Source of the DNA: an uncultured candidate division Zixibacteria bacterium
Lineage (GTDB): Bacteria > Zixibacteria > MSB-5A5 > GN15 > FEB-12
NCBI GenBank assembly: GCA_963806185.1
Contig: CAWDXE010000007.1
Location: 768,001 to 832,000 of the forward strand
Length of the DNA: 64,000 nucleotides
Direction of reading: 5' to 3'
Shown here in pieces: positions 6,711-48,682 of the stretch. Numbering within the stretch: the first letter of the stretch is position 1; every line of letters starts with the position of its first letter. The notes beneath the pieces were generated by a model. The model saw only the letters and a program-made list of their open reading frames with translations. It made no database searches and was not told the origin of the DNA. The translations under genes and the position numbers were made by a program.

Positions 6711-6746
6711 ATCCACGGCCGTAAGACCGGCCGTGGATGGATTTTT
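6711..6746 (+). terminator. Rho-independent terminator
   Basis: Perfect 11-bp stem atccacggccg/cggccgtggat with a 6-nt loop, followed by ggattttt. Confidence 0.7.
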
Positions 6747-6814
6747 CTGATTGCATAAATGGCGCGTTCTATCGTCTATTCCTGTATCAGCGTTTCTCGT
6801 ACAGGAGTGACCTC

Positions 6815-16175: not shown

Positions 16176-16185
16176 GGGGGAGATC

Positions 16186-24678: not shown

Positions 24679-24906
24679 CTACTGACAGGCGGGAAGTGGG
24701 GCGAAGGTGATGAACAGATTGTTGATCAACGCCGTGAGATCACCCACATCGACGCTGTTCGTCGGGTCACCATCGCAATTCGCTTCAGCCTGACAGCACA
24801 GTGGGTCAAAGGTAATGAAGAGATTGTTGATGAGCGCCGTCAGGTCGCCGATATCGACTCCGTCGCCCGCGCTGCAATCAACATTCCCAACTGCGCCAAT
24901 ACAACA
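24679..24906 (-). repeat. Cys-bracketed duplicated dockerin-like module (copy 4)
   Basis: CCIGAVGNVDC..VDIGDLTALINNLF..CC.AEANCDG..VDVGDLTALINNLF..CQ. Confidence 0.8.
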
Positions 24907-26037: not shown

Positions 26038-26374
26038 AATATCCTTCTTTCTGCCACGATCGTGCACGGCAGTGCGATGTAGAGCGTGTGACGTTTCACC
26101 GAGACTGATAGTGGTAAAATAGGTCGACAGGGACGAGTTGGCAATGGATTTCCATGACCCTCTTGCTTCCGCCCAGCAAGTTGCGGCGCTCGGCCGACTC
26201 TCCGGCTATTGCCGACACTTGAACTGCCGAGAACCGCGAGGCAAGTCTGCCGGTCGCACCTTCCATCAATTCTCGCCTTGCTGGGATGAGGTATAATGCA
26301 TATATTAGGTCCACGTAGTGTTATATCACGAAACACCCATCTCGGGTCATTAGCGCCCTCGGGATCTTGCGGCC

Positions 26375-27088
26375 ATGTCAACAGAACACGAACTTCGGAA
26401 TTACTGGAATCAGTGGAACGCCAAATACCAGGAAGTCGAACGCCTCGATGCACCATCAATGCGCCGTGGCGCCGAAGTTCTGCGCATCGTCAAAGGTCTC
26501 GGCCTCACCCATCCCGATATCCTCGAGGTTGGCTGCGGGAGTGGCTGGCTGTCAAGGCAGCTTTACGCGCTCGGCCCCGTGACTGCGATCGACATCGCCG
26601 ACGAAGTAATCGGTCGGGCGCAGGCGAGGATACCCGAAGTTGAATTCCTGAGCGGGGACATCACCACGGTCGATCTCGGTCCGCGTGTCTTTGACATTGT
26701 GGTCACTCTGGAAACCATCGGAAATGTCAGAGACCACGCCGGCTTCATTCAGGCCATCGGGCGACTGCTTAAATCCGGGGGATACCTGGTGCTGACGGCA
26801 CAGAACAAGTGGGTCTTCGATCGGCGAAGCGACGTACCTCCCCCGGATCCCGGAGCGATTCGCAATTGGGTGGACATCCCTACCGTGTCCCGCCTTCTCA
26901 AACAGGATTTCTCACTACTCAAGGTGATCACCGTCTTTCCCGCCGGTCATGGCGGGATTCTTAGAATCGTCAACTCCTACAAACTCGACAGCGTAGCCGC
27001 GCGTCTCGGCCTGGATAAGCCGATCACCAGCATCAAAGAACGCCTCGGCCTCGGACAATCAATAGTCCTCCTCGCAAAACGTCGGTAG
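26375..27088 (+). CDS. Class I SAM-dependent methyltransferase
   Basis: ILEVGCGSG motif I, FDIVV, LLKSGGYL. Confidence 0.9.
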   Translation: MSTEHELRNYWNQWNAKYQEVERLDAPSMRRGAEVLRIVKGLGLTHPDILEVGCGSGWLSRQLYALGPVTAIDIADEVIGRAQARIPEVEFLSGDITTVDLGPRVFDIVVTLETIGNVRDHAGFIQAIGRLLKSGGYLVLTAQNKWVFDRRSDVPPPDPGAIRNWVDIPTVSRLLKQDFSLLKVITVFPAGHGGILRIVNSYKLDSVAARLGLDKPITSIKERLGLGQSIVLLAKRR

Positions 27089-27212
27089 CGCGTCTCTCCC
27101 GGCCCTGAGTCACTCCGTTATCTGTCGAATTCACAACACCTTGTCGAGATTCAGTCAGGTCATTTTTGCGATGATTTTGTTGTGGAATTGCTTCCTAAAG
27201 CCGATGTTATAG

Positions 27213-28619
27213 ATGAAACACCGGGATTTTGACCATGAAGCAAGGATTGCTTACCCACCTATGAACGGGCTGACTAACAAATCATTCGCGCTTCTAAGTC
27301 CAAGCGGTTGGGGAAATCTGGGCGATGCGGCTATTGTCGATGCGGTAATCGAACAGATTAGATTGCGCTGCCCCGACGCTTCAATTATCGGCCTGACTCT
27401 GAACCCCGACGACACGCTCCGACGCCACAATATCCCCGCCATGACCCTTCGTGGTTTCTCGAGTATCGGGTACGGCAATCGAGAACCAGAACCGTCCGCC
27501 GTCTCGGCTTCCATATCCCAAGCTCTGGACAGACAGGCCGGCTCTGTCCCCAGCTCGACGCGGCTAAACCATCAACGGCGTGGCATGAAATTGCTCCTCG
27601 ATCTCATCACACGCCCCCTTCGCCGACCGCTCTACCCCTTGAAAAAAGAGTTCAAGCATCTGGTCCGCTCCTACCGCCGTCTGAAAAGTATCGACCTTTT
27701 GATCGTCTGCGGCGGGGGACAGCTCGACGACTACTGGGGCGGCGCCTGGGGACACCCCTACGTCCTGTTCCGTTGGGCATTGTTAGCTAAAATGACCAGG
27801 ACGCGCATGGTCATTCTCGGCGTAGGCACCGGGACAATCCAGACCGCTCTGAGCCGATTTTTCATCCGCTGCTCCCTGAGGATGGCCGAATTCCGCTCTT
27901 TTCGTGACGCCGGGTCCCGTGACCTGGTCGAAGCCCCGCGATTGGTAGGCCGCGACATGATCGGCCCCGATCTTGCTTTTGCCCTCAATGTGGATCGCTA
28001 CCTTGCGTCCAAACAGGCATCAAGCTCACTTCATGTTGCCGTGAGCCCGATGTCATATCTCGATCCACGAATCTGGCCGGAAAAAGATGCCGTCGCATAC
28101 GATCGCTACGTAAACCTGCTGGCTGATTTTCTACACTACTTGGTCGAAAACAAGTACCGCGTCTCGCTCTTTGCCACTGACACCGCCGATGAACGCACGA
28201 TTGTTGATGTTCAGAAGGCGCTTTCAGAGAAACACCCGGCGACGGCCGGCGCTGTCACCTCCCCGGAAATCGGCACCGTGTCAGGCCTGATGACTCTTCT
28301 GGGCGGAGTCGATCTAGTTGTTGCCAGTCGCCTGCACGGTGTGCTATTATCCTGCCTGATGGAAACCCCGACCCTGGCCCTATCCTACGATCGCAAAGTC
28401 TCTGCACTCATGCGGGATCTGAACCTCGCCACCTTTTGTGGTGACCTCTCTACCGCCAATCTGTCGGGCGTCATTGCCCTCTTTCAGACGACCGCGGCCA
28501 ATCGCGATCGAATCCGCACTTCGCTGCGTGACGCCGTACCGGCGTGTCGTCGCCAACTCGAGGATCAGTTTGATCGCGTCCTTTGCGCCGTCCGGGTTTC
28601 ACAGAAAGTGGAGGCGTAG
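27213..28619 (+). CDS. Polysaccharide pyruvyl transferase family protein
   Basis: GNLGDAAI, CGGGQL, SFRD..S, PDLAF, SRLHG, LSYDRKV. Start may be ATG 27261. Confidence 0.88.
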   Translation: MKHRDFDHEARIAYPPMNGLTNKSFALLSPSGWGNLGDAAIVDAVIEQIRLRCPDASIIGLTLNPDDTLRRHNIPAMTLRGFSSIGYGNREPEPSAVSASISQALDRQAGSVPSSTRLNHQRRGMKLLLDLITRPLRRPLYPLKKEFKHLVRSYRRLKSIDLLIVCGGGQLDDYWGGAWGHPYVLFRWALLAKMTRTRMVILGVGTGTIQTALSRFFIRCSLRMAEFRSFRDAGSRDLVEAPRLVGRDMIGPDLAFALNVDRYLASKQASSSLHVAVSPMSYLDPRIWPEKDAVAYDRYVNLLADFLHYLVENKYRVSLFATDTADERTIVDVQKALSEKHPATAGAVTSPEIGTVSGLMTLLGGVDLVVASRLHGVLLSCLMETPTLALSYDRKVSALMRDLNLATFCGDLSTANLSGVIALFQTTAANRDRIRTSLRDAVPACRRQLEDQFDRVLCAVRVSQKVEA

Positions 28620-28622
28620 GGT

Positions 28623-29630
28623 ATGACCGGCCATCCACGCCCACTCGTCAGTTTCGTCACGCCGTTCTACAACACGGCCCAATACCTGGCCGAGTGCATA
28701 GAGAGTGTCTTGGGGCAGACGTATCAGAACTGGGAATACCATCTCGTCAACAATTGCAGTACCGACGGCTCCCAGGAAATTGCTCAGAAATATGCGGCGC
28801 TGGACCCACGTATCAAGCTAACAACCAATGCCGAATTCCTGGACCAGGTGCCGAATTACAACCACGCTCTCCGTCAGGTTTCATCCGCCGCGACCTTTGT
28901 TAAAATGGTTCAGGCCGATGATTGGCTGTTCCCCGACTGCACTGAACGCATGGTCGAACTCGCCCGCACTGACCCGGATATTGCCATCGTCTCCGCCTAC
29001 TCGCTCCGGCACCGATTCATTGGCTGTGTCGGGCTGCCGTATCCCAGCCATGTTACGCCGGGGGAGACGGCCCTCCGCCTGCATCTCATGGAAGGAAAGA
29101 CCGTCGTCGGCACTCCCACCAACGTCCTCTACCGTGCCGATCTGGTTCGGGCGCGGACGACCTTTTTCGACGAAAAGAGCATGCTCGAGGATTTGGAGAT
29201 TTGTTACGAACTGCTCATAGGGCGCAAGCTTGGCTTCGTTCATCAGGTATTGACCTATCTGCGCGAAGACAATCCCTCCATCTCGGTCGGACTACTGGCG
29301 TACAACCCCTGGCCCCTGCATAGACTCATTCTGCTCCGCAAATACGGTCCTCGTCTCCTTGACGAACAGGAATACGCCGGCTGCCTGGAGCGGGTCGAAT
29401 CCGATTATCTCAAATTTCTTGGCTATGCCAAATTGGTCGGCCGTCCGAAACAGTTCTGGGACTACCAACGGGAGGGTTTTGCGGAAATGGGACAAACACT
29501 CCCCACCGGCCGACTCTGGCGCGAGGCCTTCGGCGCCGCACTGGATGTTGTTGCAAATCCCAAGCTGACCTGGGATCGATACCAAAACCGCCGCACGCGC
29601 GCTGCCCGGCAGGCGGGAAGGGCACTATGA
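28623..29630 (+). CDS. Glycosyltransferase family 2
   Basis: VSFVTPFYN..YLAECIESVL.QTY..., NNCSTDGS, ADD. Confidence 0.9.
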   Translation: MTGHPRPLVSFVTPFYNTAQYLAECIESVLGQTYQNWEYHLVNNCSTDGSQEIAQKYAALDPRIKLTTNAEFLDQVPNYNHALRQVSSAATFVKMVQADDWLFPDCTERMVELARTDPDIAIVSAYSLRHRFIGCVGLPYPSHVTPGETALRLHLMEGKTVVGTPTNVLYRADLVRARTTFFDEKSMLEDLEICYELLIGRKLGFVHQVLTYLREDNPSISVGLLAYNPWPLHRLILLRKYGPRLLDEQEYAGCLERVESDYLKFLGYAKLVGRPKQFWDYQREGFAEMGQTLPTGRLWREAFGAALDVVANPKLTWDRYQNRRTRAARQAGRAL

Positions 29631-30412
29631 TCGAAGCGATCCGCGAACTCTACCGCTATCGTGAACTTCTTTATATGTTCACCTGGCGGCAAATTCAGAT
29701 CAAGTACAAGCAGTCGGTCATGGGTTTGCTCTGGGCCTTTCTCATGCCCATCATCATTGTCTTTGCCGGCGTGCTGGTCAAATTGGCCTTTGCCACTATG
29801 TCGCAACGTCCTTTCAACACGCTTGAAATCGCAACCGTCGCCGTCAAAGCCGTCCCTTGGGCCTTCTTCGTCTCGTCGATTCGCTTCGCCTCCCAAAGCC
29901 TGATCGCCAACACCAATCTGGTCACCAAGATCTACTTCCCGCGCGAGATCTGCCCGCTCGCCGTTTCCCTGTCGCAGATGGTCGATTTCGCCGCCGCCGG
30001 CTCGCTGCTCGTCATCGGCCTGCTCTTTTTGCAGGTCGGCATCAGCGTCCATCTGCTCCTGGTGCCCGTGTACATCCTCCTGCTCTTCCTGTTTACCTCC
30101 GGGCTAGGGATTATTCTTTCGGCGGCCTCGCTGTTTTTTCGCGACGTGAAGTATATCGTGGAAGTCATCCTGACCTTTGCCATCTTCTTCACACCGGTGT
30201 TTTACGAGCCGACCATCTTCGGCCCCAAAGGCCAGTGGCTGCTGCTTAATCCTGTGGCGCCGATACTTGAAGGTCTGAATGACGTCGTCGTCATGCACCG
30301 AATGCCCGATATGAACTGGTTTGCCTACAGCGCCGCCGTTTCAATTCTATTGGCTCTGTTTTCACTCCGCTATTTCAAACGGCTTGAACCGGCCTTCGCC
30401 GAGAGCATTTAA
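29627..30412 (+). CDS. wzm: ABC-2 polysaccharide export permease
   Basis: YRELL..KYKQSVMGLLWA, KIYFPRE, FFRDVKY, FFTPVFY, LNPV. Confidence 0.9.
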   Translation: MIEAIRELYRYRELLYMFTWRQIQIKYKQSVMGLLWAFLMPIIIVFAGVLVKLAFATMSQRPFNTLEIATVAVKAVPWAFFVSSIRFASQSLIANTNLVTKIYFPREICPLAVSLSQMVDFAAAGSLLVIGLLFLQVGISVHLLLVPVYILLLFLFTSGLGIILSAASLFFRDVKYIVEVILTFAIFFTPVFYEPTIFGPKGQWLLLNPVAPILEGLNDVVVMHRMPDMNWFAYSAAVSILLALFSLRYFKRLEPAFAESI

Positions 30413-30421
30413 GGGAATCCC

Positions 30422-31630
30422 ATGGCCGATACCGCCCTCAGACTCGATCATGTTCACAAGAAATTCCGCCGTGGAGAGATGTACAACTCACTGCGCGACC
30501 TGATTCCCGCCATGACCGGACGATTTCTCAGACGATTCGGGAGCGAAAAACTGGAGCGTCAGGAATTCTGGGCACTCAAGGATGTCACGTTTCAGGTCGC
30601 CAAGGGCGAAGCCGTGGGCATCATCGGCTCCAACGGCGCCGGCAAGAGCACCATGCTCAAACTGTTGAGCGGAATTATGAAACCGACCTCCGGTGCGATC
30701 ACCGTCAACGGCAAACTCTCCGCCTTGATTGAGGTCGGCGCCGGCTTCCATCCCGACCTGACCGGCCGGGAGAATATCTTTCTCAACGGTGTCATCCTCG
30801 GCATGACCCGAAACGACATCAAACGCAAGTTCGACCAGATCGTGGAATTCTCCGGACTGGCCGAATTTATCGACACACCGGTCAAGCGTTACTCCTCCGG
30901 CATGTTCGCCCGCCTCGGCTTTTCGGTCGCGGCCCATGTTGACCCGGACATTCTCATTGTCGATGAAGTGCTCAGTGTCGGTGACTATGTCTTCCAGAAG
31001 AAATGCATTGAACGGATGAACGAAGTGCTTCACGACGGAACGACCGTCATCTTTGTCTCACACAATCTGCGCGCCGTCACCGACCTTTGCCATCGCTGCG
31101 TCTTGCTCGATCACGGCTCCGTTCTCTCTATCGGGCCGACCGCTGACATCGTCCGTAATTATATGTCTCTCGTGTCGGAAAATCGCGGCGACCAAAGCGA
31201 CAAGCCGGTACGAATCACCCGGCTGGATATCCGCAGTGAGGCCGGTCCGTCCGTGACCTTTAGTGCCGGGCAACGGGCCTGGGTGGACATTGAGCTGACT
31301 GCCACCCGACCGGTTGAGAAAATCGCCGTCGTACTGGAATTGCAGGACAACAGCTTCTACGAAATCTTCAATACCTCATCCGAACGGTTAGGCATTCCAC
31401 CCCTCTCTCTCAAAGCCGGGGAAACCTTCACCTGCACCTTCGCATTGCAGCTTCATTTGTCCGCCGGTACTTTTCATCTCGGCGCCGCGCTTTACCGGTA
31501 TGATATCCAGAAAGCCTTCGATAGCTGGTCCAGTTCGACGACCATATTCGTCAAATCGCCTATTGACGTCCGCGGCGCGGCGAACTTGTACCCGACCGTG
31601 ACCATGAATCGCAAGTCCGAAGTAAAATGA
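30422..31630 (+). CDS. wzt: ABC polysaccharide export ATPase with C-terminal carbohydrate-binding domain
   Basis: FWALKDV, GSNGAGKST, YSSGM, DEVLSVGD and a Wzt_C extension. Confidence 0.92.
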   Translation: MADTALRLDHVHKKFRRGEMYNSLRDLIPAMTGRFLRRFGSEKLERQEFWALKDVTFQVAKGEAVGIIGSNGAGKSTMLKLLSGIMKPTSGAITVNGKLSALIEVGAGFHPDLTGRENIFLNGVILGMTRNDIKRKFDQIVEFSGLAEFIDTPVKRYSSGMFARLGFSVAAHVDPDILIVDEVLSVGDYVFQKKCIERMNEVLHDGTTVIFVSHNLRAVTDLCHRCVLLDHGSVLSIGPTADIVRNYMSLVSENRGDQSDKPVRITRLDIRSEAGPSVTFSAGQRAWVDIELTATRPVEKIAVVLELQDNSFYEIFNTSSERLGIPPLSLKAGETFTCTFALQLHLSAGTFHLGAALYRYDIQKAFDSWSSSTTIFVKSPIDVRGAANLYPTVTMNRKSEVK

Positions 31631-31633
31631 CGG

Positions 31634-32596
31634 GTGTCACATACTATGCCTGCCAATCCCTTCATCGATCCTTCACCCGCTCTTGATGTCTCGATCATCA
31701 TCTGCTCGCGCAACCGGTGCGCAAGCCTTTTGGGTGTGATACAGGCGATGTATGAGCAAAAGGGAACTGACACTCTGGCGTGGGAATTGATCGTCGTCGA
31801 CGACGCTTCAACCGATGCCACCCGGAAGACCGTTGAAGATTGGATTGCCGATGGACACCCCCAGACCCGCTACTTGTTCGAGCCGACTATCGGCCAGGCC
31901 TTCGCCATGAATCGGGGCACAGTTAATGCAAAAGGGAAGTTGCTCATATTTACCGATGATGATGTCGTTCTGGACAGCCGGTGGCTGGTCAGTCATCTGT
32001 TCGCCTTTGAGAAATTCAATTGTGCCGGCGTGGGAGGGAGACTCCTGCCGATGTTCACGCCGGCTCCGCCCAAATGGTACCGCTCCGATATCCCCTTCCC
32101 GTATCGTTTTGACTTTGGCGACCAGCCGACAGCTCTCACCGCCCCGCCCTTCGGTGCCAACATGGCTTACCGGCGTGATGCTTTCGTGAAATACGGCTTG
32201 TTCCGCACTGATCTCGGCTCGACCCCCGACAATCCAGCCGGCAAAGGAGTGGATTCCGAATTTGGTCGCCGACTCATGGCCGGTGGGGAGAAGATCATGT
32301 ACGCGCCCGATGCGCTCCTCTACCATCCGCTCGATGCTCGCTTGATTACCCCCGCCTTCATGCACAAGTGGTATTACCAGTACGGCCGTTCGCAGGTGCT
32401 CAGGCAGTCAGCCGACCTGGCGGGTGTCCGCTGGTTCGGTATTCGCCGCCACCTGATTCGATCGCTGGTATCCAATTGGCTGAAGGGGAAATTGCTGTTT
32501 GACCCCGCCGAGCGTTACCTCCGCGAGATGGACGTCTATCGTACGCTGGGGATTATTGCCGAAGAACGCGAGCAGGCTCGCGCCGGCAAATCGTGA
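31634..32596 (+). CDS. Glycosyltransferase family 2
   Basis: SIIICSRNR, VVDDASTD, FTDDD, GANMAYRR. Confidence 0.9.
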   Translation: MSHTMPANPFIDPSPALDVSIIICSRNRCASLLGVIQAMYEQKGTDTLAWELIVVDDASTDATRKTVEDWIADGHPQTRYLFEPTIGQAFAMNRGTVNAKGKLLIFTDDDVVLDSRWLVSHLFAFEKFNCAGVGGRLLPMFTPAPPKWYRSDIPFPYRFDFGDQPTALTAPPFGANMAYRRDAFVKYGLFRTDLGSTPDNPAGKGVDSEFGRRLMAGGEKIMYAPDALLYHPLDARLITPAFMHKWYYQYGRSQVLRQSADLAGVRWFGIRRHLIRSLVSNWLKGKLLFDPAERYLREMDVYRTLGIIAEEREQARAGKS

Positions 32597-32621
32597 GTAT
32601 CAGGATGAGCGCTGTGCCGTG

Positions 32622-33857
32622 TCAGGCGCTGAGCAGGTCAATGACCGAGCGCTGCGAAAGAGCTTCCTGCGTATCCGCAAATCGACTCACGTATTCAGGA
32701 CCAAGATTCCGGCACATTGCCTCTGCCACCGTCGCTGCCAGGGTATGCCAATCATACGCCCGGGCCGTCTCGCGACGTTGCGCCACCAGGTTGGGCTCTC
32801 GCATCTCCGGGCGCTGGGCGAATTCCAGGGCTTCGATCCACCCGTCGACTCCGTCTGCAATCGTGAGCACGTTTGAAAACTCCATCGCTGCCGGAATCGG
32901 TGAACTGACCACCGGAAGACCGGTCGCAAGATACTCGTGCATCTTGAGCGGATAGATGTACTTGGTGTAATTGTTCCGCTTGTAACCCATCAGACAGACG
33001 TCAAAATGCTGACAATACGCCGGCAGATCATCCACCGCTTTGGGTCCCATGTAGTGGACATTGGGCAGCGAGAAGAGCGCATTCACCACCGACATCTGAT
33101 CTCCTACCGCACCGATGGGCCCCACAAAAACATACTGCCATTCCGGCTTTGCTCTGGCCAGCTCGAGGTGCATGTTCAGGTCCATGTGACTCTTGATGTA
33201 CCCGATATATCCCATTCGCGGATGAGGGATGTCGCGCATATCCTCCGGTTCCTCGCGCGGGGTCGCGTATGCCCCGAAGTCAACCCCGTTCGGCACTCTA
33301 ATACTGCTCTGGTTCAGGTACCCCTTCTTGATCATCAGATTGTTTGAATGGATGAACACCTGGTTGACCCGCTTTATAATCCCTATCTCCACGGGATCAT
33401 TCGGCGGATCATCCGGCAAGAAGGAATACTCGTCGTCAATATGATAACAACTGATGTCATACCTGGCGTGATCCAAAGTCGAGACGTAATCCGGATGCCA
33501 GAGATACAGCACCCATTTCCGAATTTTGATCGGACGAATCGCATATCGTGCCTGGGTAAGGCGTATCCGCTCAAAAAGCTCTGAAGCAAAATGGGGTCGA
33601 TACACCTTGGGGAAAAGCGAGCTCGGTGTGTACTCGACCAGCCCGCCCAACCTGCGTTCCGCCCGGTACCAGGGGGCGAAGCGATGATCTCTGACCACCC
33701 GCCGCCACTCCGGCACGGGACCGTACCAGACGATATGAAAGTACTCCGAAAGGGCGGTGAGTAAATGATGCCGCGTCTGGCGCGGATTGGCCCAGCGGTC
33801 TGGGACAACGGCCATGACGCCGACCTCAGGGATGAGCGGAGCCCGGTCAATTTTCAC
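32622..33857 (-). CDS. GT-B glycosyltransferase (GT4/TuaH-like)
   Basis: VPNGVDF, PRMGYIG, NVHYMG, PLKMHEYLATGLPVVS. Confidence 0.85.
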   Translation of the reverse strand: MKIDRAPLIPEVGVMAVVPDRWANPRQTRHHLLTALSEYFHIVWYGPVPEWRRVVRDHRFAPWYRAERRLGGLVEYTPSSLFPKVYRPHFASELFERIRLTQARYAIRPIKIRKWVLYLWHPDYVSTLDHARYDISCYHIDDEYSFLPDDPPNDPVEIGIIKRVNQVFIHSNNLMIKKGYLNQSSIRVPNGVDFGAYATPREEPEDMRDIPHPRMGYIGYIKSHMDLNMHLELARAKPEWQYVFVGPIGAVGDQMSVVNALFSLPNVHYMGPKAVDDLPAYCQHFDVCLMGYKRNNYTKYIYPLKMHEYLATGLPVVSSPIPAAMEFSNVLTIADGVDGWIEALEFAQRPEMREPNLVAQRRETARAYDWHTLAATVAEAMCRNLGPEYVSRFADTQEALSQRSVIDLLSA

Positions 33858-34314
33858 TATTTGCTCGAACTTTCCATATTCCTACTCAGTATCGGCACGT
33901 TTTCGTTTTGGTAAAGATAACCCTGGTATTCCATGATACCATCGCCAAACGCCCATGCCGGATAGCCTAAAGCTCGCTTTGACACGACTTTTCTTCATTT
34001 CCCAGGTCCTTGAGATTTGCACTTGGCCGTATTGGTAGCCGGGGGATGACGCCGGATGATTGGCAGTTGCTGGACGGACGAAAAGTTCGGGACTTCGTGA
34101 CAGCCGCCTCTCCAGAGTTATTCGCCTCGCAGGTACAATCGCTTTCTTGTGACTGACGAGCTACACAGTCGGATAATACCGCCTAAGTCACGCCTTGTCA
34201 AGGTGTTGCCCGCCCGATGCTAGGGCGCAAGCCGCCTGTCCGAATTTGGACCAGCCACGAAACACAACCCGGCCCTGTCTCGTCCACTTCATGATCGCCA
34301 CGGCCGCCTCCTCG

Positions 34315-34665
34315 TTACTTGCGGTTTCGCTTTGACCAAAAGTCAAAGGACCGACCCGGCACGAAAATGTCCAATCCCACCGACGGAACCGCCAGCGGAT
34401 TCGTCACCACGTGCGTCTCGTTCCCCGGAATATACACCGCGTCGCCCGGTCCAAGTTCCCGCTTGTCGGTATCCGTTGTCACGACTATTTTGCCCTCGAG
34501 TACCACCAACACCTGAGCGTTGACGTGTTCATGTTTGGGCGAGGCGTGACCCGCCGGCTTGACAAAGTGCTCAATCGAAATGTCCGGCTGACTGCAAAGG
34601 CTTGATCGGCGCCAGTCTTTCTCCGGCTCATACTTCTCGGCTTGATCGAATCGTATCACGTGCAC
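34315..34665 (-). CDS. Cupin domain protein
   Basis: PKHEH...VLEG...PGDAVYIPGNETH. Confidence 0.85.
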   Translation of the reverse strand: MHVIRFDQAEKYEPEKDWRRSSLCSQPDISIEHFVKPAGHASPKHEHVNAQVLVVLEGKIVVTTDTDKRELGPGDAVYIPGNETHVVTNPLAVPSVGLDIFVPGRSFDFWSKRNRK

Positions 34666-34736
34666 AGGCGCGCTCCTTTCATGTATCAGATCATGGTAAA
34701 CAAGGAGGGGTAATAGCGCAAATTCAATGCGCTGCT

Positions 34737-36293
34737 TTAGAGCGAATTTCCGGCCACCGAGAGCCGGGTCGATAGAACCGAACTGTCAGCCGCCGTGCCA
34801 AGCTGATGTAGGCGATAGATATTGAACTTGCCGAAGGTCGATTGCTTCTGCAGGTAGCGGCTGATTTCCGGTCGCCCCTCCAGCGTGCGCGAATCCGAAA
34901 TCAGATAGCGCGCCCCGCGCTCCAGCATATTCTCGAACTTATCCGTCGACACGTCCGCGGTTGTCGACCACCCCTTGCGGTGCATGAAGTACAAATCGAT
35001 GCTGGGCGATTGGTCCTCGGCGGCAATCACCAGTTCCGCCCTGTCGGGTATCACCTTGTCGAGGTGCGCCTCTATGCCCAGCAGATCGGCGTTAATTGGT
35101 GACCAATGAAATCGGGGAAGCGCATTCGCACACCCGGCGACCGGCACCGCCAGGAGGAGAACTGCTACCATGGCCTGTAGAGCGCGGGATCTCGACGACC
35201 ATTCCAGTGCAAACCGAACGCCCATCGTCCCAAGCACGACCAACGGCACCAGCGTCGTGGTCAGGTAGTATTCGTGATGCTCGAACATCGGCAACATTGA
35301 TGACATGAAGGCCAGGAGCGGCACCGTACTGAGTACCAGAAATTCAACAGCACTGGCCACTCGAATGCGAAGCAGGGAAAACGCCCCCACCACCAGTAGC
35401 ACGGTCTCCGCTCGATTGACCACAAATCCCGGCATCCATTTTACGAACACGTCCTGCAGCCGGGGGAGAATAATCGCCGTGCCGTACGGCAGCACGGCGC
35501 CCAGCACAAAATCCTCGTTGCCATAGGTGATATTCAGGTAGCGGGCGTAGACATACCAGCTTGCCACAATTCCGCACGCCGCGCCCGACGCCAGCACCAT
35601 GCGTAAACGTGTCGAACGAGACTGCGGTGACTTCACGATATCAAAGAGGTACCACAATACCACAATGATGCCGGTAATCTTTATCAGCGCTGATATCGCT
35701 AGAAATACCAGCGCCCAGACGGCGTACCGCCCGCGATTGACCGTCTTACCGATCTGCCAGCAGGCGAGCGATACGAACAACAGACAAAGTGCCGGGACAT
35801 CCGGCAGCGCCGTGATCGAATAGTACAGGAAAAGCGGACTGAAAATAAGAAAGACGGCGGCGACAAAGCCCATCACTTTCGAGCCCATGAGATAACGCAC
35901 AAATTGAAAGCAGCCGACGATGCCCGTGAAACTGAGAAGTAGCATTACTACCCGCGACAGGGTGTGACTGAATCCAAAAACAGCGTACCCCTGCGCAATG
36001 ATATAATTTACCACCGGGAATTCCATCCCCGCAATTCCCGTCAGATTTCCCCGGGAATCTACGCGCGGCTGAAAGATACTGCCGCCCTCTTCATAGAAAT
36101 TACGAGCCACCGACAACGTCTGCGTCTGCCTCCAGACATGACGACCGGTCGGCGGTAGGGTCACGTAGGGGAGATGTACCAGAATCTGACTCAGTAACAA
36201 AACGGCGACCAGACTGAAAGTTCGGCGCGCTTCCAGCCAGTTGATGATTTGCCCCATTATCCCGGAAATAGCGGTCTGCCCGGTCGCTTGCAT
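34737..36293 (-). CDS. ArnT/PMT-like (GT-C) membrane glycosyltransferase
   Basis: WRQTQT..ARNF, EFP, many TM helices, H.YY motif. Confidence 0.78.
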   Translation of the reverse strand: MQATGQTAISGIMGQIINWLEARRTFSLVAVLLLSQILVHLPYVTLPPTGRHVWRQTQTLSVARNFYEEGGSIFQPRVDSRGNLTGIAGMEFPVVNYIIAQGYAVFGFSHTLSRVVMLLLSFTGIVGCFQFVRYLMGSKVMGFVAAVFLIFSPLFLYYSITALPDVPALCLLFVSLACWQIGKTVNRGRYAVWALVFLAISALIKITGIIVVLWYLFDIVKSPQSRSTRLRMVLASGAACGIVASWYVYARYLNITYGNEDFVLGAVLPYGTAIILPRLQDVFVKWMPGFVVNRAETVLLVVGAFSLLRIRVASAVEFLVLSTVPLLAFMSSMLPMFEHHEYYLTTTLVPLVVLGTMGVRFALEWSSRSRALQAMVAVLLLAVPVAGCANALPRFHWSPINADLLGIEAHLDKVIPDRAELVIAAEDQSPSIDLYFMHRKGWSTTADVSTDKFENMLERGARYLISDSRTLEGRPEISRYLQKQSTFGKFNIYRLHQLGTAADSSVLSTRLSVAGNSL

Positions 36294-39852: not shown

Positions 39853-40401
39853 ATGCCTCAATCTATCGCACAACTCTGGTCAGGCATTCTGGATGGCAAT
39901 CCGCGCTCGTGGGAGGAGATGGTCCGCCGCTTCAATCCGCTGGTTGTCGCCGCCGCTCGGGCTCACGGTCTTGCGGCGGTGGATTTGGAGGATTGTGCCC
40001 AGCAGACCTGGTTGGCCCTCTACACCGGCCGGGCACACATCAATGATCCCCTGGCCATACCGACATGGCTCGTCACCGTCGCCAAACGCAAAGCGCAACG
40101 CCTGCAAATAAGACAGAAGGCCGGAACCACCGCAGAACAGGAATTCAACCCGGAAGCCAACAGCGTCTCACCCGAAGATTTATATGTCAAGGCGCTCGAG
40201 GCGGCACGCCTCCATATCGCCCTCGAGCTGTTGGACAGCCGCTGTGCCCGCCTGCTCAAGCGATTGTTTCTGGCATCGGAAGAATATACGTACCAGGAAA
40301 TTGCCGAAGAATTACGGATCGCGCCCAACAGCCTCGGCCCAATCCGCTCCCGCTGTCTGGCCCGGTTGCGCAAAATCCTGAGTGAACTTGATCACGGATA
40401 G
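39853..40401 (+). CDS. ECF RNA polymerase sigma factor
   Basis: 182 aa. Region 2 (W..MV.RF..LV, EDCAQQTW, WLVTVAKR) and region 4 (YQEIAEEL...SLGPIRSRCL.RLR). Confidence 0.9.
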   Translation: MPQSIAQLWSGILDGNPRSWEEMVRRFNPLVVAAARAHGLAAVDLEDCAQQTWLALYTGRAHINDPLAIPTWLVTVAKRKAQRLQIRQKAGTTAEQEFNPEANSVSPEDLYVKALEAARLHIALELLDSRCARLLKRLFLASEEYTYQEIAEELRIAPNSLGPIRSRCLARLRKILSELDHG

Positions 40402-40491
40402 TACTAACTCCCTTTGAGCCGGTACTTATTGAATGACTGGCCTGATCGCATACGACGGTCCGAGCCACGCCCGCGAAACGAGACCTGATTT

Positions 40492-41055
40492 ATGACAAAT
40501 GCCACCAAACATCCCTCGAGACAGGCGCTTCACCGTCACCTGCAAGTTGCCGAATCCAGCATCTCCCGGCATCTGAAAAGTTGCGAAGACTGCCGACTAA
40601 TTGTCCACTCAATGCGCCACCTTATGGCTGTTGACGATCAGGCGGCCGACCGGGCCCGCCGGGAGTCTCTGGTGCAAAGCATCTTGAGTGTGCCGGCACT
40701 CTCCGCTCCTCCGGCAGGCCGCCCGCGCCTCGCTCCAATTGTGCGGGATTCGTGGCAATCCGCCATGGTTGCCCAATTGCGTCACGCCGCTCACGGGGTA
40801 GAAAGACGCCTGAGATTCCACGTCGGCGACATTACCGTCGACCTCGTCGCCGATCGTCTCGGCGACAAGTGGAACTGCTCTATGCGCATCAGCCGCCGGG
40901 GACGGTCCGTCTCTCAATTCGCGGCCAGCCTCGGCAAGCGGAAGATGCTGCCGGTCGACGTCGGCTTCTTCTCCTGGGTGGCCAAACGCCCGCCTAAGCA
41001 AATTCGACTATGGTCTTCCGATTCGAAAATCCTCCTGGAGACCATACCGTGGTAG
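40492..41055 (+). CDS. Putative soluble zinc-finger (ZAS) anti-sigma factor
   Basis: HLKSCEDC = Hx3Cx2C at 40570-40593; no TM helix; directly downstream of the ECF sigma. Confidence 0.7.
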   Translation: MTNATKHPSRQALHRHLQVAESSISRHLKSCEDCRLIVHSMRHLMAVDDQAADRARRESLVQSILSVPALSAPPAGRPRLAPIVRDSWQSAMVAQLRHAAHGVERRLRFHVGDITVDLVADRLGDKWNCSMRISRRGRSVSQFAASLGKRKMLPVDVGFFSWVAKRPPKQIRLWSSDSKILLETIPW

Positions 41056-43820
41056 CCTCACGCCCAAAGCTCAGTCTGGCTGCCCGGCGCTTCCTGGACG
41101 GCGGGGGAATCCCGTCCGATCCATCGGCCATGATCCGGGAATGCGACACTTATGTCCGGAAATACACCCAGGTTGACCTGGTCAAAGCCAGAACCCTGGC
41201 CCACCAGTTTGTTCTCCGAACCCGCACCCTGCCACCAGCCGACCGGGCCACCGCACTCCGCGCCCTTGGTTGGACCTGCCAAGTGGGTGCCGCCTATCGG
41301 GAAGCCGAATCCGCTTACCTCAAAGCCCGCAAGCTGGCTGGAAACGACACCGATCTGCGCGCTCGTATCGACCGCATTCTCATCGATGTATATATGTATC
41401 TGGGCGACTACCGCGAAGCCGTCCGTCGGGCGCGCATCGCCATCGCCGCTTTTCGCCGTTTGCACGACCGCGACGGAGAAGCCAAGACCCTCGTTAATCT
41501 CGCCAACGTGTTCCATCGTCAGGATCGGCACGTCGATGCCCTGCGGCTGTATCGAAAAGCCGCCCGGCACTACGAAAATACAAGTGACAAGCTCACCTTG
41601 GGTGTGTGCAGCTACAATTGTGCCAACTGTCTGGTGCAGTTGCTCCAGTTTGACGAGGCCGATGCTCTCTATCGGAGCGCCGAACGGCTGTTTGGCGAGG
41701 TCGAGTATGGCCTCTATGTCAACGAGGCCAGATACGGCCGCGCCTGGTTGGATAAGCTCCGGGGCAATTATCACCTCTCCCTCCGCGCCCTCGCCGAATG
41801 CGAGGAGGAATATCGAAAGATTGGTCAGCCGAAGGGGGTGACGCTCTGCCAGCTCGATCGTGCCGAAGTCATGCTCGAATTGCAGCTCCTCTCTGATGCC
41901 CGGGCCCTTGCTAAAGATGCCGAAAAAAGCGCTCGAAAACTCAAGATTCAGTATGAGGCTGCCAAAGCCGCGCTCTTCCTGGCGAAAGCTGCCTTCGGCC
42001 TCGGGGCAAATCGCGAGGCACAGGAGGCTCTCAGGCGCGCCCGCATTGGCTTTGAATCGGTTAAGAACGATACCATGGTCGGTGTCAGTCGATTCTATGA
42101 CGCCCTGTATCACGACGGTGAATCCAGCCTGGCTGAACTCGACTCGACTCGACGGCTGTTCCATTCCGCCCAATTGCCCCTCTGGCAGGCGGTGTGTGAT
42201 CTGACGTCAATGGCCATACGCGCGCCCCGATATGATGCGGCTACCCTTCAACGATTGGCGAAAAATCCCGCCGTTTCCTCCGTCCCGCACCTCTACGCAG
42301 GATGGAAAACACTTCTGGGTGATCGTTCGCTGAGTCGCCACGACCTCACCGGCGCCAAGCGCAACTGGACCCGGGCGGCCGATGCGCTTGATAAAATGCG
42401 GGCCAAACTCCCGCCCGTTGACATGCGTCAAACCCTGACCGAAAAAAGCCTGGATCCGTACAAGCGTATGTTTGGCCACGAAATGACTCGCCACCCCGAG
42501 GCGGCCGCCATTTGGTCCGAACGAAGCAAGATTGCGGGCATCTGGACATACGATCAATCGGCCGACCTCCCCGACGCTCGACGCAAAGTCGCCGACCGTC
42601 TGGCCGAATTGGCCCAACATGTCACGGCGCTCTCGTCATCGCTCGAACGAACCAGGGGAGAGGCGGCCGGCCAACTCTGGCCGACCGACAATCGATTCTG
42701 CCGACTGCAGGCTGAAATCAGACGTGACCTTCTGGCCGCGCACGAAAGCGACTTTTCCGTTGCCGGTACGCATAACACAATCAGGGATACCATCCGCGAT
42801 GCCTCAACGGTCAATCCTCTGGTGCAATTCCACATGGACGATGATCGACTGGTGGCCTTTGTCCATCAGCGAGGTGTCACTCGCACACACATCTACCCTG
42901 ACTCGCAGCGTATGCTGACCCGCTTTCTCGGTCAGTGGAATGTTCTGCTCATCAATACTGTCGCCCGGGGGCAACGGCAGCGTCTGGCCGACCGGGACGA
43001 GGAGACCCGCCTGCTAACCATGCTCGGCGACTGGCTCTGGAGACCGCTTGAGCTACCCTTGGATTGCCCACAAGTCACCATTATTCCAACCGGCGAGATG
43101 GCCAGTCTGCCTTGGTCAGCCATGATTGTCGATGGCTCTGCACTCATCGATCGTCATCGCTTCACCCTGGCTCCCAGTATCAGCCATTTTGCGGCTTCCG
43201 CCCGGTTTAGAATTACCAGCCGCTCAGCCCGAATCTTTGTGGGCGATACCAGCGGCCTCAAGTATGTCGCCGATGAACTCTCCGCCGTGTCACCGCTCCC
43301 CGCTGTCGACCTCGACGTCTGTCGACCATGCCTCCGGGAGAACTGGCCCCTGTCCGGAGAACATCTGCTCTGGCACTACATCGGCCACGCGCAATTTCGC
43401 GGCGATAATCCGTTTTATTCTTCACTCCTGCTGGAAGACGGCCCGATCTTCGCGGCCGATTTCCGACTGCGTTCCTGTCGGGTCGGCCTGGTCACCCTGG
43501 CCGCCTGCCGTACCGGCGTGCAATCGTCCGTGCCCGCCTACGAATCGACCGGCCTGGTACGGTCCCTCCTTGAAATGGGAGCGCAAAACGTCCTCGCCAG
43601 CCACTGGTCGGTGGGTGACCGCCCCACCGCCGACTGGATGAGGACCTTCTATGCTTTACTTGGCAACGGCCATACCCTGTTGGACTCCACACGCCTCACC
43701 ATTCAACGCATGCGCGAGATGTACCCGTCGGCCGGACAATGGGCCGCGTTTTCCCTGTTTGGTGCCGGTCGTGATGCCTGGGATAAGAATTTCTTCAAAA
43801 GAGATATGAGGAGAATGTGA
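41049..43820 (+). CDS. TPR-CHAT (caspase/separase-like clan CD) protease
   Basis: N-terminal TPR repeats; [18 protein letters not shown] (His 43386); [18 protein letters not shown] (Cys 43506); [16 protein letters not shown]. Probable GTG start overlapping the upstream stop. Confidence 0.9.
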
Positions 43821-43822
43821 TC

Positions 43823-46800
43823 ATGCGTGCCAATCGATCAGTCAGTTGGTTGATCCCTCTGCTGGTGTTGCTTCTGGCGGCTACGGGAACGACCGGGGAG
43901 CACAATCCCTTTATCGTTGGACAACTGGTACTCAAGATGTTATCGGGCGGAGACGTCAACGCTCTGGCTCAGCAGTACAATCTGGACCTTCGACAACATT
44001 TGCCCCAAATTGACGTCTACCAGGTAGACGCAACGCCGGGTGCCGACCTCGATTCACTGTCGGCAGTGATCTCGGCGCAATCCGACGTCGAGTTCTGCCA
44101 TCCCAACTATGTGCTGGATCCACTGCGATCCGTGCAGAGCAGCCTGCCGATCTCCGACGACAAAGCCTTGCCTGACTATGAATCGCAGGGGTCGGTGAGT
44201 CGTCTCCAATTGACCGAGGTACATACTCTCACCACCGGTCAGGGAGTCAAGGTCGCCATTCTTGACGGCGGCGCCGAATTCTCCCATCCATTGATTTCCG
44301 GGGTCGTTCTTTCCGGCTATGATTATGTTGATGACGACGCCGACGCGTCCGACGTACCCGGCGGCAACAACTACGGCCACGGTACCTTCGTCGCCGGTAT
44401 CGTGCATCTCGTGGCCCCCGACGCACAAATCGTCGTCTACCGCGTCAGTGACCCCCAAGGCGAAGGGAATGGGTATATCGTCGCCGAGGCCCTCCTTCAG
44501 GCCGTTGCTGACGGCTGCAAGATTATCAACATGAGCATGGTCGTGCATGGATACCACATGGCTATCGCCAAGGCTGTCGAGTACGCCCGCGATCACAATG
44601 TCCTGGTCGTGGTCGCCGCCGGCAATGATCAGGAAAATCAAGGTGTTTTCCCGGCCGATCATCCGGACGTACTTTCGGTTCTGGCCGTCGACACGGCCGA
44701 TCACCTGTCCACTTTCTCAAATTACGGCAGCCATATCGACATCGCCGCCCCCGGCGAGCTGGTGGTAGGGCCTTACCACAGCGGTAAGTATGCGTTGTGG
44801 GGTGGAACGAGCTTTGCCGCGCCGTTCGTCGCCGGACAAGCGGCGTTGATCCTGTCGCTTGTGCCAAACATTCCCTGGAACAACCTCTTCCAGACCATCG
44901 TCAATTCCGCGGTCAATATCGATCTTAACAACCAGGGGTACGAGGGTCAACTGGGAAGCGGCCTGACCAATCCGCTCGGTTCGGTACAACAGGTCGAGCC
45001 TACCGACCTCCTGCACTTCGTGTGCTGGCCGGTGAGCAGCGGGGGAAATGGGCACTGGTATGGTGCGATCCCCGACCTGTTAAATTGGGACTCTGCCCGT
45101 CAACGGGCTACCACATACTCGTACGGGGGGTTCACGGGCCATCTCGCCACAGTCAATACGCCCGCCGAGAATAATTTCATCTATCAGCAGGTAATGGTCG
45201 GACTGACGCCAGGGTCGGTCCTTGAACAATACTTCCTCGGATCCCGGCTGGTCAACGGCCAGCGAACCTGGATAACCGGTGAGCCGTTCACGTATTCCAA
45301 TTGGGCGCCGGGAGAACCTGGTGGCGGCTTCAGCGAACCAGGATCTGCGATGTGGGGAAGCACGAATACTGCCGCCAATCGGACCCCCGGTACCTGGAAT
45401 GACGTCGCCATCGACCAAACATCCAGCAATTATCTCTATTTGGGGATAGTTGAATTCGGCGACACAGTTGACACCGACCCATTTGATTCCAGTGCTGTTT
45501 GCGGTAATGTCAACATGGATTTGCTCGGCCTGGTGGACACGGCCGACGTCTCAGCGCTCATGTCCTACCTCCACAAGGACTTGTCACTTAGTATCTCGCC
45601 AACAGCCGCTAATGTCGACTTGAGTGTGAACCTCGATAACAATGACGTCGTCGTGCTGGCCGATCATGTATACGGCGCCCACAATCCGCTGACGTGCGCG
45701 CCGACCTTCGTCGGTAACTACCCCCAGAACACTGCTGACGTGATCACGATCAGCCCCCTGACCATCACTCCGCCGTATGCGGCAAGGGTTGTTGCCGAAG
45801 TCACGTTCACTGCCAGCGAACCGTTCCGGGGTCTTTCCTTCACCTTTGAATACGGGTCTTACGGCAACTACGGATACCTCTCGAGCATCACGCTGCATGA
45901 TTCCGCCGACCAATGCATGACCGGAATCTTCCCGAACACCCACAACGGCGCGATTGCCCTGCTGGAACAAGACACCGACTTACCCGCCGGTGAATACCAC
46001 ATTGCCACGCTGGTCTTTGACAACGTCGTAGGGCCCTCACCGCAAATATTCCTCGATACGACCACCCTCAGCCGTGGCGCTCGAGTCGTGGTTTCTCGGC
46101 AAGGCGGACTCGTGTCTACAATTCCGGAGATCCTCGGCCGCAATCCTGGTTTCGACCTCGACGGTGACGGTGTCCCGGACGCTACCGACAACTGCGCGGT
46201 AAGAGCCAACCCGGATCAGCTTGACGGCGATAACGATGGGGTCGGTGATGCCTGCGATCCCGACTTCGTCTGTGGCAACATCGACTGTGATTTGACGCTC
46301 GACCTCAGCGACCTTGCTAGATATATCGATTACCTGCATTTCGGAGGTCCCTCCGACATATGTGAATCGGTGGCTGACCTCGATCAGTACGTCGGCCTCA
46401 CGAACAATGACATTGTCGCTTTCATTCGCTGGATTTTTGTCACCTTCGAACCCCTGCAGTGTTCGCCTACTCTCCTGGGTTCATTTCCGGTCGACCCCGG
46501 CGATATCCTGACGATTGGTGATCTTAACGTTCCGCCGAATACACCGACGTGGGATGTGCCACTCATGTTCACCGCCAGTGCTCCATTCGACGCCCTCGCC
46601 TTCCCCTTTGTCTACTCCTCAACCGGAGATCAAGCCGTCCTGTCTTCAGTCACGGTAGTTATGGGAGACCAAATGGAAGTTGGCCGGGCGTTCCCCGCCA
46701 CCCATTCCGGAACCGTTGCCTTCTCTTCGTTTCAAAATGACTTTGCTGCGGGGTCATATCTCATCGGGACGCTCCATTTCACCAATACGAGCTCACCCAC

Positions 46801-48682
46801 CGGCATGCAGATCACGCTCGACTCGACCACCAATTCTCGCGGGAGCACAACGGTGGTGTCGCGCGATTGGGGAGTGCTGCCAAGCATTCCGTCACTGCGG
46901 GCCTACGACCCGACACTTGACTGGGACGGCGATGGTGTCGGCGGGACGACGGACAACTGCCCTTTGGTCGCCAACCCGGATCAATCCGATCGGGATCATG
47001 ACGGCGTCGGCGATGCCTGCGACGAATGCCCGGATCTCGTCAACCCCTGCGCCGTTGTCTGCGGACTCACGGGCGACGTTACGCTCGACGGCAACGTCAA
47101 CATCGGCGATCTCACCTATCTGGCCGACTACCTCTATCTCGGTGGTCCTGCCCCGGTGAATCCGCTTACTGCCGACTGTGACAATGTGGCCGGCATAACA
47201 CCTCGCGACCTCGTGGTGCTCAACGGGTACCTCTTCGCGCACACCACGACACTATCCTGCCCGCCGAGTTCCGCGACCTATCCGCCAACCGATCCTTCGA
47301 TCGTCCTGCGACTGCCCAGCCTGCTTCCTGCGGGTGTGTCGCAGCTCGCCTGTCCGCTCTGGCTGGAGGCGCCGGTTGACGTCGTGTCCTTCAATCTCCC
47401 GCTCCAGGTGCGCGTGGGCGATGAAGTACCGGTTATCGATTCCTTCGTGCAATCGCCCTTCTTCAAAGCAACGACCGCGTGGATCATGAAGCCGGAGGAT
47501 CTGTTTTCGACCAAAGCCGACTCCGGAATCGCCCTGATTGCCGGTTCAACCGCCATGGTATCCGACCTGTCCTTGCCGGCCGGAAGCAATTTGCTTGGCA
47601 CCCTTTATATCACGGTCACGGCGAACGACAGTGATCGCACCGTCTCCGGTTCCTGGGGCCTCATGTACCCGCAGCATCCGCTGCCCGTTAGCTATCCCGA
47701 GGTCGGCTTGTTGCCGCAGATCGTGGGCAAAGGGGGACCATCGTTGGCCAAGCCGCTTGACCAGCTCGCCGTCATCTACACGCAATATACGCCGACGCTG
47801 ATCGAGGATCCCGGCTGCTGCCTCGGCATCAGAGGCAACGTCGATTGCGACCCGGCTGACAACATCGACATCGGCGACCTTACCTGCTTCATCCAGGGTC
47901 TGTTCCTCTTCGGCGAGGGTGGAGGATGTATGTGCTGCCTTGAAGAGGCCGACGTGAACAGGGACAACGGCGTTGACATCGCCGATCTTACCGACCTGAT
48001 ATGCTACCTCTTCTTGGACTGTGATCCTCCGCCGTCCTGTGGACCCGTCGCTCTCGGACTTGTCCCGGCTGCGAAAGTGCAGGCTGGCGTGACAATCAAC
48101 ACCGAATATGCCGACGGCAAGACCACCGTAACTCTTTCCTCCGACGTCGATCTCCTCGGTGTTCAACTCACACTTCCCGGTTCGTCGCTCGGCAAAGCGC
48201 AATCACGATCGCCGGAGGGCATGGAACTCTACCAGGGCACTTGGGACAATAGGACGCACATTGGATTATTGGATATGGAGGGAAAGCTCTCCTGGAGCCC
48301 AGGCAATCACACGCTGCTGGTCATCGACGGTGAGGCGACGATTACCGAAGCTATTGTGGCCGATCTGAATCACCATTCCTGGACCGCCGAGACTTCTTCC
48401 TCCAGGTCGTCGGTGCCGGCAACATTCTCATTGGCGCAGAACCACCCCAATCCGTTTAACCCGGCAACGACCATTGAGTTCAGTATTCCCAAACCCGCGC
48501 ACGTTGAACTGTCCGTGTACAACGTGAGCGGGCAATTGGTCGCCGTGCTCGTCGATCGGGAACTGCCGGCCGGCGCCCAGTCACTCGATTGGAACGCTTC
48601 CGCGCTCGCGAGCGGTGTGTACGTCTATCGCCTGACCACGCGCGATTATTCGGCGACGCGCAAGATGATTCTGCTCAAATAA
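43823..48682 (+). CDS. Secreted S8 subtilase with C-type lectin, dockerin-like, cohesin-like and TSP3 modules and T9SS-type C-terminal domain
   Basis: GAGGAG SD and signal peptide. Triad VAILDGG / HGTFVAG / GTSFAAP; lectin ([17 protein letters not shown]); four GN/GD.D...D..D EF-hand pairs; C-terminal [15 protein letters not shown]...ASGVYVYRL...KMILLK. Confidence 0.9.

Follow-up and report, generated by a model that had tools for sequence, protein, structure and literature searches.

Can a secreted protease also serve as a docking post for other secreted proteins? The question is raised by one gene in a 64,000-nucleotide stretch of DNA from an uncultured candidate division Zixibacteria bacterium (assembly GCA_963806185.1, contig CAWDXE010000007.1, positions 768,001 to 832,000), which we refer to as the window. 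The gene is an open reading frame (ORF) at 43817-48682 (+) that encodes 1621 amino acids in a single reading frame. The order of domains is a signal peptide, an S8 protease, a lectin-like domain, four dockerin-cohesin pairs, and a C-terminal sorting domain (CTD) of the type IX secretion system (T9SS). An initial annotation, made from the sequence alone, proposed that the tail behind the protease is a scaffoldin of alternating dockerin-like and cohesin-like modules. Structural models of two pairs, and sequence comparisons for the other two, indicate that the tail is composed of four dockerin-then-cohesin pairs followed by the CTD. A scaffoldin role, that is, cargo capture or polymerization, is plausible, and the protein is likely a cell-surface docking post for some of the approximately 90 dockerin-tagged proteins of the genome.

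Domain order and predicted folds of the protease tail

The features of the ORF are listed below, with Z scores and root-mean-square deviations (rmsd) from structural alignment and E-values from profile hidden Markov models (HMMs).

43817-48682, +: whole protease ORF (Pfam and translated sequence)
43817-43897, +: likely Sec signal peptide (basic N-region and hydrophobic core, judged by eye from the sequence)
44237-44992, +: S8 subtilase domain (PF00082, E 6e-44)
45011-45460, +: C-type-lectin-like domain, weak match (PF00059, 20.3 bits, below the cut-off of 22.6)
45500-45697, +: dockerin 1, internal asymmetric class (unit profile and repeat-symmetry scoring)
45698-46138, +: cohesin-like repeat 1 (fold assigned by way of repeat 2, 42% identity to repeat 2; leave-out HMM E 2.7e-15)
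46151-46261, +: TSP3 calcium-binding repeats, first stretch (PF02412)
46268-46462, +: dockerin 2, internal asymmetric class (superposition of the model on dockerin 4fl4_A, Z 5.8, rmsd 1.7 over 65)
46463-46897, +: cohesin-fold repeat 2, modeled (AlphaFold2; 5nrk_A, Z 10.5, rmsd 2.5 over 126)
46910-47041, +: TSP3 calcium-binding repeats, second stretch (PF02412, best stretch amino acids 1035-1056)
47063-47260, +: dockerin 3, internal asymmetric class (PF00404, 22.5 bits, just under the cut-off of 22.9)
47261-47722, +: cohesin-like repeat 3, divergent (fold assigned by homology; leave-out HMM E 2.5e-20)
47813-48040, +: dockerin 4, symmetric cargo-like class (model against 4fl4_A, Z 9.8, rmsd 2.0 over 65)
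48074-48406, +: fourth, shorter cohesin-fold domain (model pLDDT 89, pTM 0.86; 2vo8_A, Z 12.2, rmsd 3.3 over 111)
48413-48679, +: T9SS type A CTD (PF18962 and TIGR04183, above cut-off)

The S8 motifs are all intact: the triad residues Asp150, His188, and Ser332, and the oxyanion Asn270. A prodomain is found at amino acids 26-97 (PF22148, E 2e-5). The lectin-like domain sits between the protease and dockerin 1, and the genome has two paralogous domains. The TSP3 linkers and the CTD recognized in the initial annotation both exceed their curated cut-offs (PF02412, 46.9 bits versus 25; PF18962, 35.9 bits versus 27; TIGR04183, 40.8 bits versus 23). By its CTD, the protein is a predicted type A T9SS substrate. 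Because of the CTD and established T9SS biology, we expect Sec and then T9SS export, with PorU-type attachment at the surface. The genome encodes SprA and PorV, which the annotation had listed among the T9SS genes to look for, as well as PorU (over cut-off: SprA 1, PorU 1, PorV family 10). PorU adjoins PorV-family matches at G000:C4:246771-252644. PorK, PorL, PorM, and PorN, also on that list, were not found with TIGR03525, 03513, 03517, and 03523 in this 82%-complete genome; three of these four models matched in no control genome.

The four dockerin-like pairs begin where they had been placed from the sequence, at 45500, 46268, 47063, and 47813. Their identity is supported by a profile of the dockerin-plus-beta units, which matches solved dockerins (best E 1.8e-8). 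Asp occupies position 12 in 98-100% of both dockerin repeats, consistent with type I-like dockerins and their two calcium-loop/helix repeats, and helices fall at residues 13-24 and 46-59 of the unit 2 model.

The three beta-rich repeats behind dockerins 1 to 3 were likewise located correctly. An HMM built from 271 homologous units, leaving this protein out, detects all three (repeat 2, E 4.7e-20), and the same search of a reversed proteome gave no match below E 0.1. Repeats 1 and 2 align with 42% identity (E 6e-31). Repeat 3 had been called more divergent, and pairwise comparison (E 0.007) gives it no significant match; only the HMM recovers it.

What fold do these repeats adopt? The suggestion that they are cohesin-like is borne out by an AlphaFold2 model of dockerin 2 and repeat 2 (pLDDT 89, pTM 0.84, from an alignment of 24 sequences), for which cohesins rank first in both Foldseek and VIA-align. 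Against 48,161 chains in VIA-align, the top 18 rows are cohesins, and the first non-cohesin row has Z 7.4; residues 1-65 of the same model match a dockerin. In Foldseek, nearly all listed rows are cohesin entries (best E 1e-6). A nine-stranded beta-sandwich that superposes on solved cohesins is seen in the predicted models of repeat 2 and of the fourth domain. The modeled repeat is thus predicted to fold as a cohesin, and we infer the same fold for repeats 1 and 3 through their homology to repeat 2. Two other explanations were rejected: an immunoglobulin (Ig) or carbohydrate-binding module (CBM) identity, which the annotation had named, along with a lack of dockerin binding, as the finding that would undo its proposal, ranks beneath the 18 cohesin rows, and chance resemblance is at odds with the empty reversed-proteome controls.

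Sequence methods see little of this relationship. The Pfam cohesin family PF00963 matches 0 of 46 unit cohesins at E<=1, and the whole protein is also without a PF00963 match. Sequence searches of the repeats against the PDB matched no cohesin, and a word-index search with unit 2 returned nothing beyond the protein itself. The repeat HMM does recover the Pfam-positive cohesins of the genome (E 2e-11 and 5e-10). We file the unit domains as cohesin-fold, tied to PF00963 members solely via this HMM. Cohesin clusters in the ESM Atlas, scoring 0.88-0.89, are a lead only.

The fourth pair was absent from the initial annotation and is added here. For the domain behind dockerin 4, the top 13 structural rows are all cohesins. 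Profile comparison of the three repeats with this domain is not significant (probability 6%), so its kinship to them is argued from the fold. With dockerin 4 and this domain as the query, 23 of 101 phylum genomes contain the block, all of them in the family of the window. Weak matches to the fourth-domain or repeat HMM also lie right before the CTD of several large proteins (L067, L068, L070, and G000:C1:744516-751013), and therefore more hidden cohesin folds are likely; in the profile search of the genome contigs, CTD matches dominated.

Spread and dockerin classes of the unit

The locus defines a small object: a dockerin-cohesin unit of 211 residues. When the first three pairs are built into a profile, at least 118 of 285 phylum genomes contain a match at E<=1e-24, with 10 candidates scored per genome and the genomes of the training rows included in the count. 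In a library of 1.84 billion proteins, the profile matches 393 clusters at E<=1e-30, part of them by virtue of tandem dockerins alone. The named homologue closest to the unit belongs to Ca. Zixiibacteriota. The tyrosyl-tRNA synthetase (TyrRS) of the genome also makes a Zixibacteria origin probable: in a comparison that matched 4 of 5 genomes, it shares 68%, 58%, and 49% identity with three entries named Zixibacteria or Zixiibacteriota, and 63% with one labeled Ignavibacteriaceae. Seven proteins (P0024, P0025, P0035, P0037, P0051, P0053, and P0056) have 8-12 tandem dockerin-like repeats and no cohesin, and several of these end in an S8 domain.

The unit moves as a pair among unrelated proteins. 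Among 146 proteins with full units, a dockerin forms the end of 120 and a CTD that of 8, with 18 ending otherwise. Of 168 proteins listed, about 20, counted by eye, are dockerin-cohesin-dockerin and nothing else, and proteins such as P0021 have up to four units with no catalytic domain found. Spacing within the unit is nearly constant: from the last dockerin Cys to the start of the cohesin, the linker measures 12-13 residues in all but 8 of 147 units (139; a further aligned unit, the 148th, lacks the Cys), and in a second alignment it stays within 3 residues in 243 of 270 units. The gap from the end of a unit to the next dockerin ranges from 4 to 58 residues (88 cases, with a script limit of 60 residues).

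Dockerins inside units differ from those at protein ends. Near-identical dockerin repeats are the basis of the dual binding mode. The two repeats of internal dockerins share 3.7 of 13 positions, versus 9.85 of 13 for the terminal dockerin of the same protein. The terminal dockerin is the more symmetric in 80 of 82 proteins (82 scored of 146, with kinship among them making the cases non-independent). In internal dockerins, repeat 1 retains the terminal-type consensus, and the departure is confined to repeat 2, where positions 9-11 carry Thr/Asn, Asn/Ile, and Asn/Arg. In the protease, dockerins 1, 2, and 3 have 4, 2, and 5 identical positions of 13, and dockerin 4 has 8. Dockerins 1-3 thus lack near-identical repeats, a property that is not needed for dockerin membership. 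In these alignments, internal dockerins are a separate asymmetric class, to which dockerins 1-3 belong, with dockerin 4 cargo-like.

Open, closed, or swapped sockets

How might such a tail work? Our preferred reading, held tentatively, is that the protein may be a surface catalytic anchor or adaptor whose cohesin sockets capture dockerin-tagged proteins. X modules brace dockerins. Here, each dockerin is predicted to pack rigidly against the next cohesin, and the internal dockerin would brace its cohesin side-on without covering the binding face. The calcium-loaded dockerins, together with the TSP3 repeats, would stiffen the tail, and the cohesin sockets would pick up dockerin-tagged proteins at the cell surface.

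Several observations favor this reading, among them the cohesin matches of the models and of the repeat HMM, the dockerin census, and the ends of related S8 proteases described below. Others bear on open sockets in particular. Strands 3 and 6 of cohesins, which we take to be the dockerin-binding face, have a similar small-residue pattern in 274 unit cohesins and 17 free-cohesin matches (Gly 55 versus 41%, Pro 80 versus 53%, Gly 51 versus 29%). The minimal dockerin-cohesin-dockerin proteins count for free sockets because a fully closed pair would leave them with no evident job. The terminal-type consensus retained in repeat 1 of the internal dockerins also seems to back this reading. As to the name, four predicted cohesin-fold domains and a CTD anchor on one chain are traits of a scaffoldin. 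The S8 motifs are intact, and the protein is therefore not "non-catalytic," the wording in a report on Ca. Stygibacter (PMC8542988). The protein would work like an anchoring or adaptor scaffoldin; being catalytic, and with its binding in trans putative, it is not filed as one.

Several points weigh against open sockets. The socket may be occupied in cis by its own dockerin because the nearly fixed linker welds dockerin to cohesin and the prediction shows the two domains as a single rigid unit; the linker length and the pTM of 0.84 would be equally expected of a self-bound dockerin. Pfam no longer recognizes the unit cohesins, a drift that a private pair could undergo. Cargo could also be held by the six other cohesin-CTD proteins of the genome, and PorK, L, M, and N went undetected. 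Units occur on the protease at only 2 of 40 comparable loci, described below, so the operon does not need a hub. Interdomain covariation is weak and directed to both cohesin ends. Across 274 units (effective number 234), the top pairs are intradomain, several of them between cohesin strands, and cross-domain pairs show no enrichment, with 9 among the top 45. The ten best cross-domain scores average 3.98, with a null of up to 3.96 in 35 within-cluster permutations. Nine cross-domain pairs score above 3.5, a number reached once in the 35 permutations, and the highest score was surpassed in 3 of them. With 101 sequences in one cluster, this is a coarse control for kinship.

The strongest competitor, though on balance doubtful, is that each dockerin binds its own cohesin, the one downstream of it, at the canonical face. 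This would make the tail a rigid, calcium-dependent stalk of four self-satisfied blocks that hold the protease off the surface, and the protein would be no scaffoldin. Such closure would suit the fixed order and linker of the unit, set against the variable gap to the next dockerin, as well as the rigid two-domain models of both modeled pairs (pTM 0.84 and 0.86), the movement of the two domains as one unit, and the drift of the unit cohesins from the family profile. The lost symmetry of internal dockerins would be expected too if a tether fixes one orientation. However, dockerin 4 still has the symmetric cargo signature although it precedes a cohesin fold, the minimal proteins would be left idle, and the strongest covarying pairs include, weakly, residues of the cohesin tip, at a distance from the expected binding patch.

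We think it unlikely that two further proposals hold together: that the unit is a self-complementary brick that exchanges partners among molecules, polymerizing into a calcium-locked, enzyme-carrying surface scaffold, and that the C-terminal dockerin is a second type IX address label. If the label reading is true, the 86 CTD-less dockerin proteins of the genome are carried across the outer membrane by cohesin-CTD proteins, this protease being one such carrier. The finding that orthologues of the protease have a dockerin or, alternatively, a CTD at the end (see below) would fit it.

Less probable again is a swapped arrangement, in which the internal dockerin binds the unit cohesin of another molecule to form head-to-tail filaments or a surface mesh, and cargo-type dockerins use free cohesin-CTD anchors instead. 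The existence of two dockerin classes would accord with swapping, and every internal-class dockerin in the genome (6 in 4 proteins) is followed by a cohesin. Unit-rich proteins such as P0021 and the division of the weak covariation signal between two patches point the same way, but the rigid single-chain model accounts for the fixed linker without any swap. Least credible of all is that the domains bind no dockerin and are repurposed as Ig-like spacers or as adhesin or carbohydrate-binding domains: the modeled domains share only 7-17% identity with solved cohesins, sequence-level matches to Pfam or PDB cohesins are lacking, and the structural lists continue with a Gram-negative adhesin domain, pilins, and CBMs (Z 7.4 and lower). 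Against this, true cohesins outrank every other fold, and the domains invariably come with a dockerin, share homology with Pfam-positive cohesins, and belong to a genome that encodes 92 dockerin proteins.

Genomic setting and known systems

A census of 12,291 six-frame ORFs, in which the fourth domain was not counted among the cohesins, found 92 dockerin proteins. The dockerin is C-terminal in 86, and none of these 86 has a CTD. The genome further encodes 22 cohesin-like domains in 19 proteins, and 44 proteins with a CTD; six proteins combine cohesin and CTD without a dockerin, and the protease is the sole protein to combine dockerin and CTD. The initial annotation had also placed dockerin-tagged cargo elsewhere in the window. 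Four such genes are found there, and they are listed with the genes directly upstream of the protease, which include a sigma factor of the extracytoplasmic function (ECF) type.

2239-2466, +: C-terminal cargo-type dockerin of a beta-helix protein (751-2469)
6464-6685, +: C-terminal cargo-type dockerin of an FG-GAP/ASPIC protein (4781-6688)
8987-9208, +: C-terminal cargo-type dockerin of the protein at 6737-9217
24682-24909, -: C-terminal cargo-type dockerin of the protein at 24679-26067, with five CxxCH motifs
39853-43820, +: ECF sigma factor, 187-amino-acid partner, and TPR-CHAT protein, upstream of the protease in the same conserved string

The fourth of these cargo-type proteins, at 24679-26067 (-), is likely a five-heme cytochrome tagged for docking, judging by its motifs. 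The 826-amino-acid protein at 6737-9217 has no Pfam or NCBIfam match, and none of the four has a glycoside hydrolase match in Pfam. Elsewhere in the window are an ordinary pair of bacterial alpha-2-macroglobulin and PBP1C (10692-18525) and a surface polysaccharide cluster (26375-36293) with a methyltransferase, a pyruvyl transferase, glycosyltransferases, a Wzm/Wzt-type ABC transporter, and a PMT-family transferase.

The protease closes a four-gene string at 39853-48682: ECF sigma factor, 187-amino-acid partner, TPR-CHAT protein, and S8 protease, with the TPR-CHAT stop overlapping the protease start. TPR-CHAT matches were found in 69 of 151 phylum genomes. We compared 40 CHAT loci: 39 belong to the strongest matches, and the other is a second, broken copy from this genome. 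ECF sigma factor, partner, and CHAT are in order at all 40, and S8 is next at 39. The second copy (L222, G000:C1:878000-890500) has its CHAT gene in three reading-frame pieces and an S8 protease ending in a dockerin. At L198, the gene after CHAT encodes a 1365-amino-acid cohesin-CTD protein with no match to the S8 query. The loci hold 41 S8 frames, of which 26 terminate with a dockerin and 13 with a CTD; the other 2 are fragments. Dockerin and CTD are therefore alternative ends of the same protease. The presence of units at only 2 of the 40 loci makes the long tail a local elaboration. In this comparison of loci, the tail is a lineage-specific addition; the conserved operon protease to which it is joined otherwise has just a dockerin or a CTD at its end.

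Several known systems share parts of this architecture. In Ca. Stygibacter (Cloacimonadota), a cellulosome-like system was proposed in silico (PMC8542988). It too belongs to a Gram-negative candidate phylum, with tandem cohesins and a CTD on one protein and dockerin-tagged peptidases, including S8, as proposed cargo. Its scaffoldin is described as non-catalytic with CBMs, and S8 is cargo; here, the S8 protease itself bears the predicted cohesin folds, which are invisible to Pfam and each joined to the dockerin ahead of it. The "planctosome" of Nemodlikiaceae (Planctomycetes), also an in silico proposal (PMC6461901), is a non-cellulolytic peptidase assembly with an adaptor that has both dockerin and cohesin. 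Its anchor carries TSP3 repeats, like the tail described here. That anchor has a lamin-tail domain instead of a T9SS CTD, and in that system dockerin and cohesin are single copies split by an HYR domain, in contrast to fused pairs. In anaerobic methanotrophic (ANME) archaea, one non-cellulolytic polypeptide with a dockerin and up to five cohesins was described in silico (PMC9012536); these proteins are archaeal, with no T9SS and a single dockerin each, whereas pairs alternate here. The double-dockerin S8 protease of Clostridium thermocellum (structure 8x39, PMC12484212), the best sequence match of the unit profile in the PDB, is likewise an S8 protease with several rigidly packed dockerins, but it is described as dockerin-dockerin, with no cohesin and no CTD.

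Among solved structures, the best matches (Z 9-12) are type I clostridial cellulosome cohesins (5nrk, 4uyp, 6kgc, and 1ohz) and non-cellulosomal entries from Archaeoglobus fulgidus (2xdh) and Clostridium perfringens hydrolases (2vo8 and 2w1n), the latter showing that enzymes can carry cohesins. No listed solved chain aligned over both dockerin and cohesin of the model as a fused pair. In the literature searched, mostly non-subscription main texts, none linked Zixibacteria (in that spelling) to dockerin, cohesin, or type IX secretion, and none treated both dockerin and cohesin in Latescibacteria.

Cohesin-dockerin assembly beyond cellulolytic Firmicutes is known mostly from in silico genome proposals. 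This locus adds a fused unit that escapes Pfam and has a dockerin class to itself, together with the choice of dockerin or CTD on orthologous proteases. The unit could reveal a new use of the dockerin-cohesin pair as a stalk or polymer brick, and it could yield new orthogonal binding pairs for designer scaffolds. From its state, be it open, closed, or swapped, one would learn how a Gram-negative candidate phylum arranges approximately 90 secreted surface proteins.

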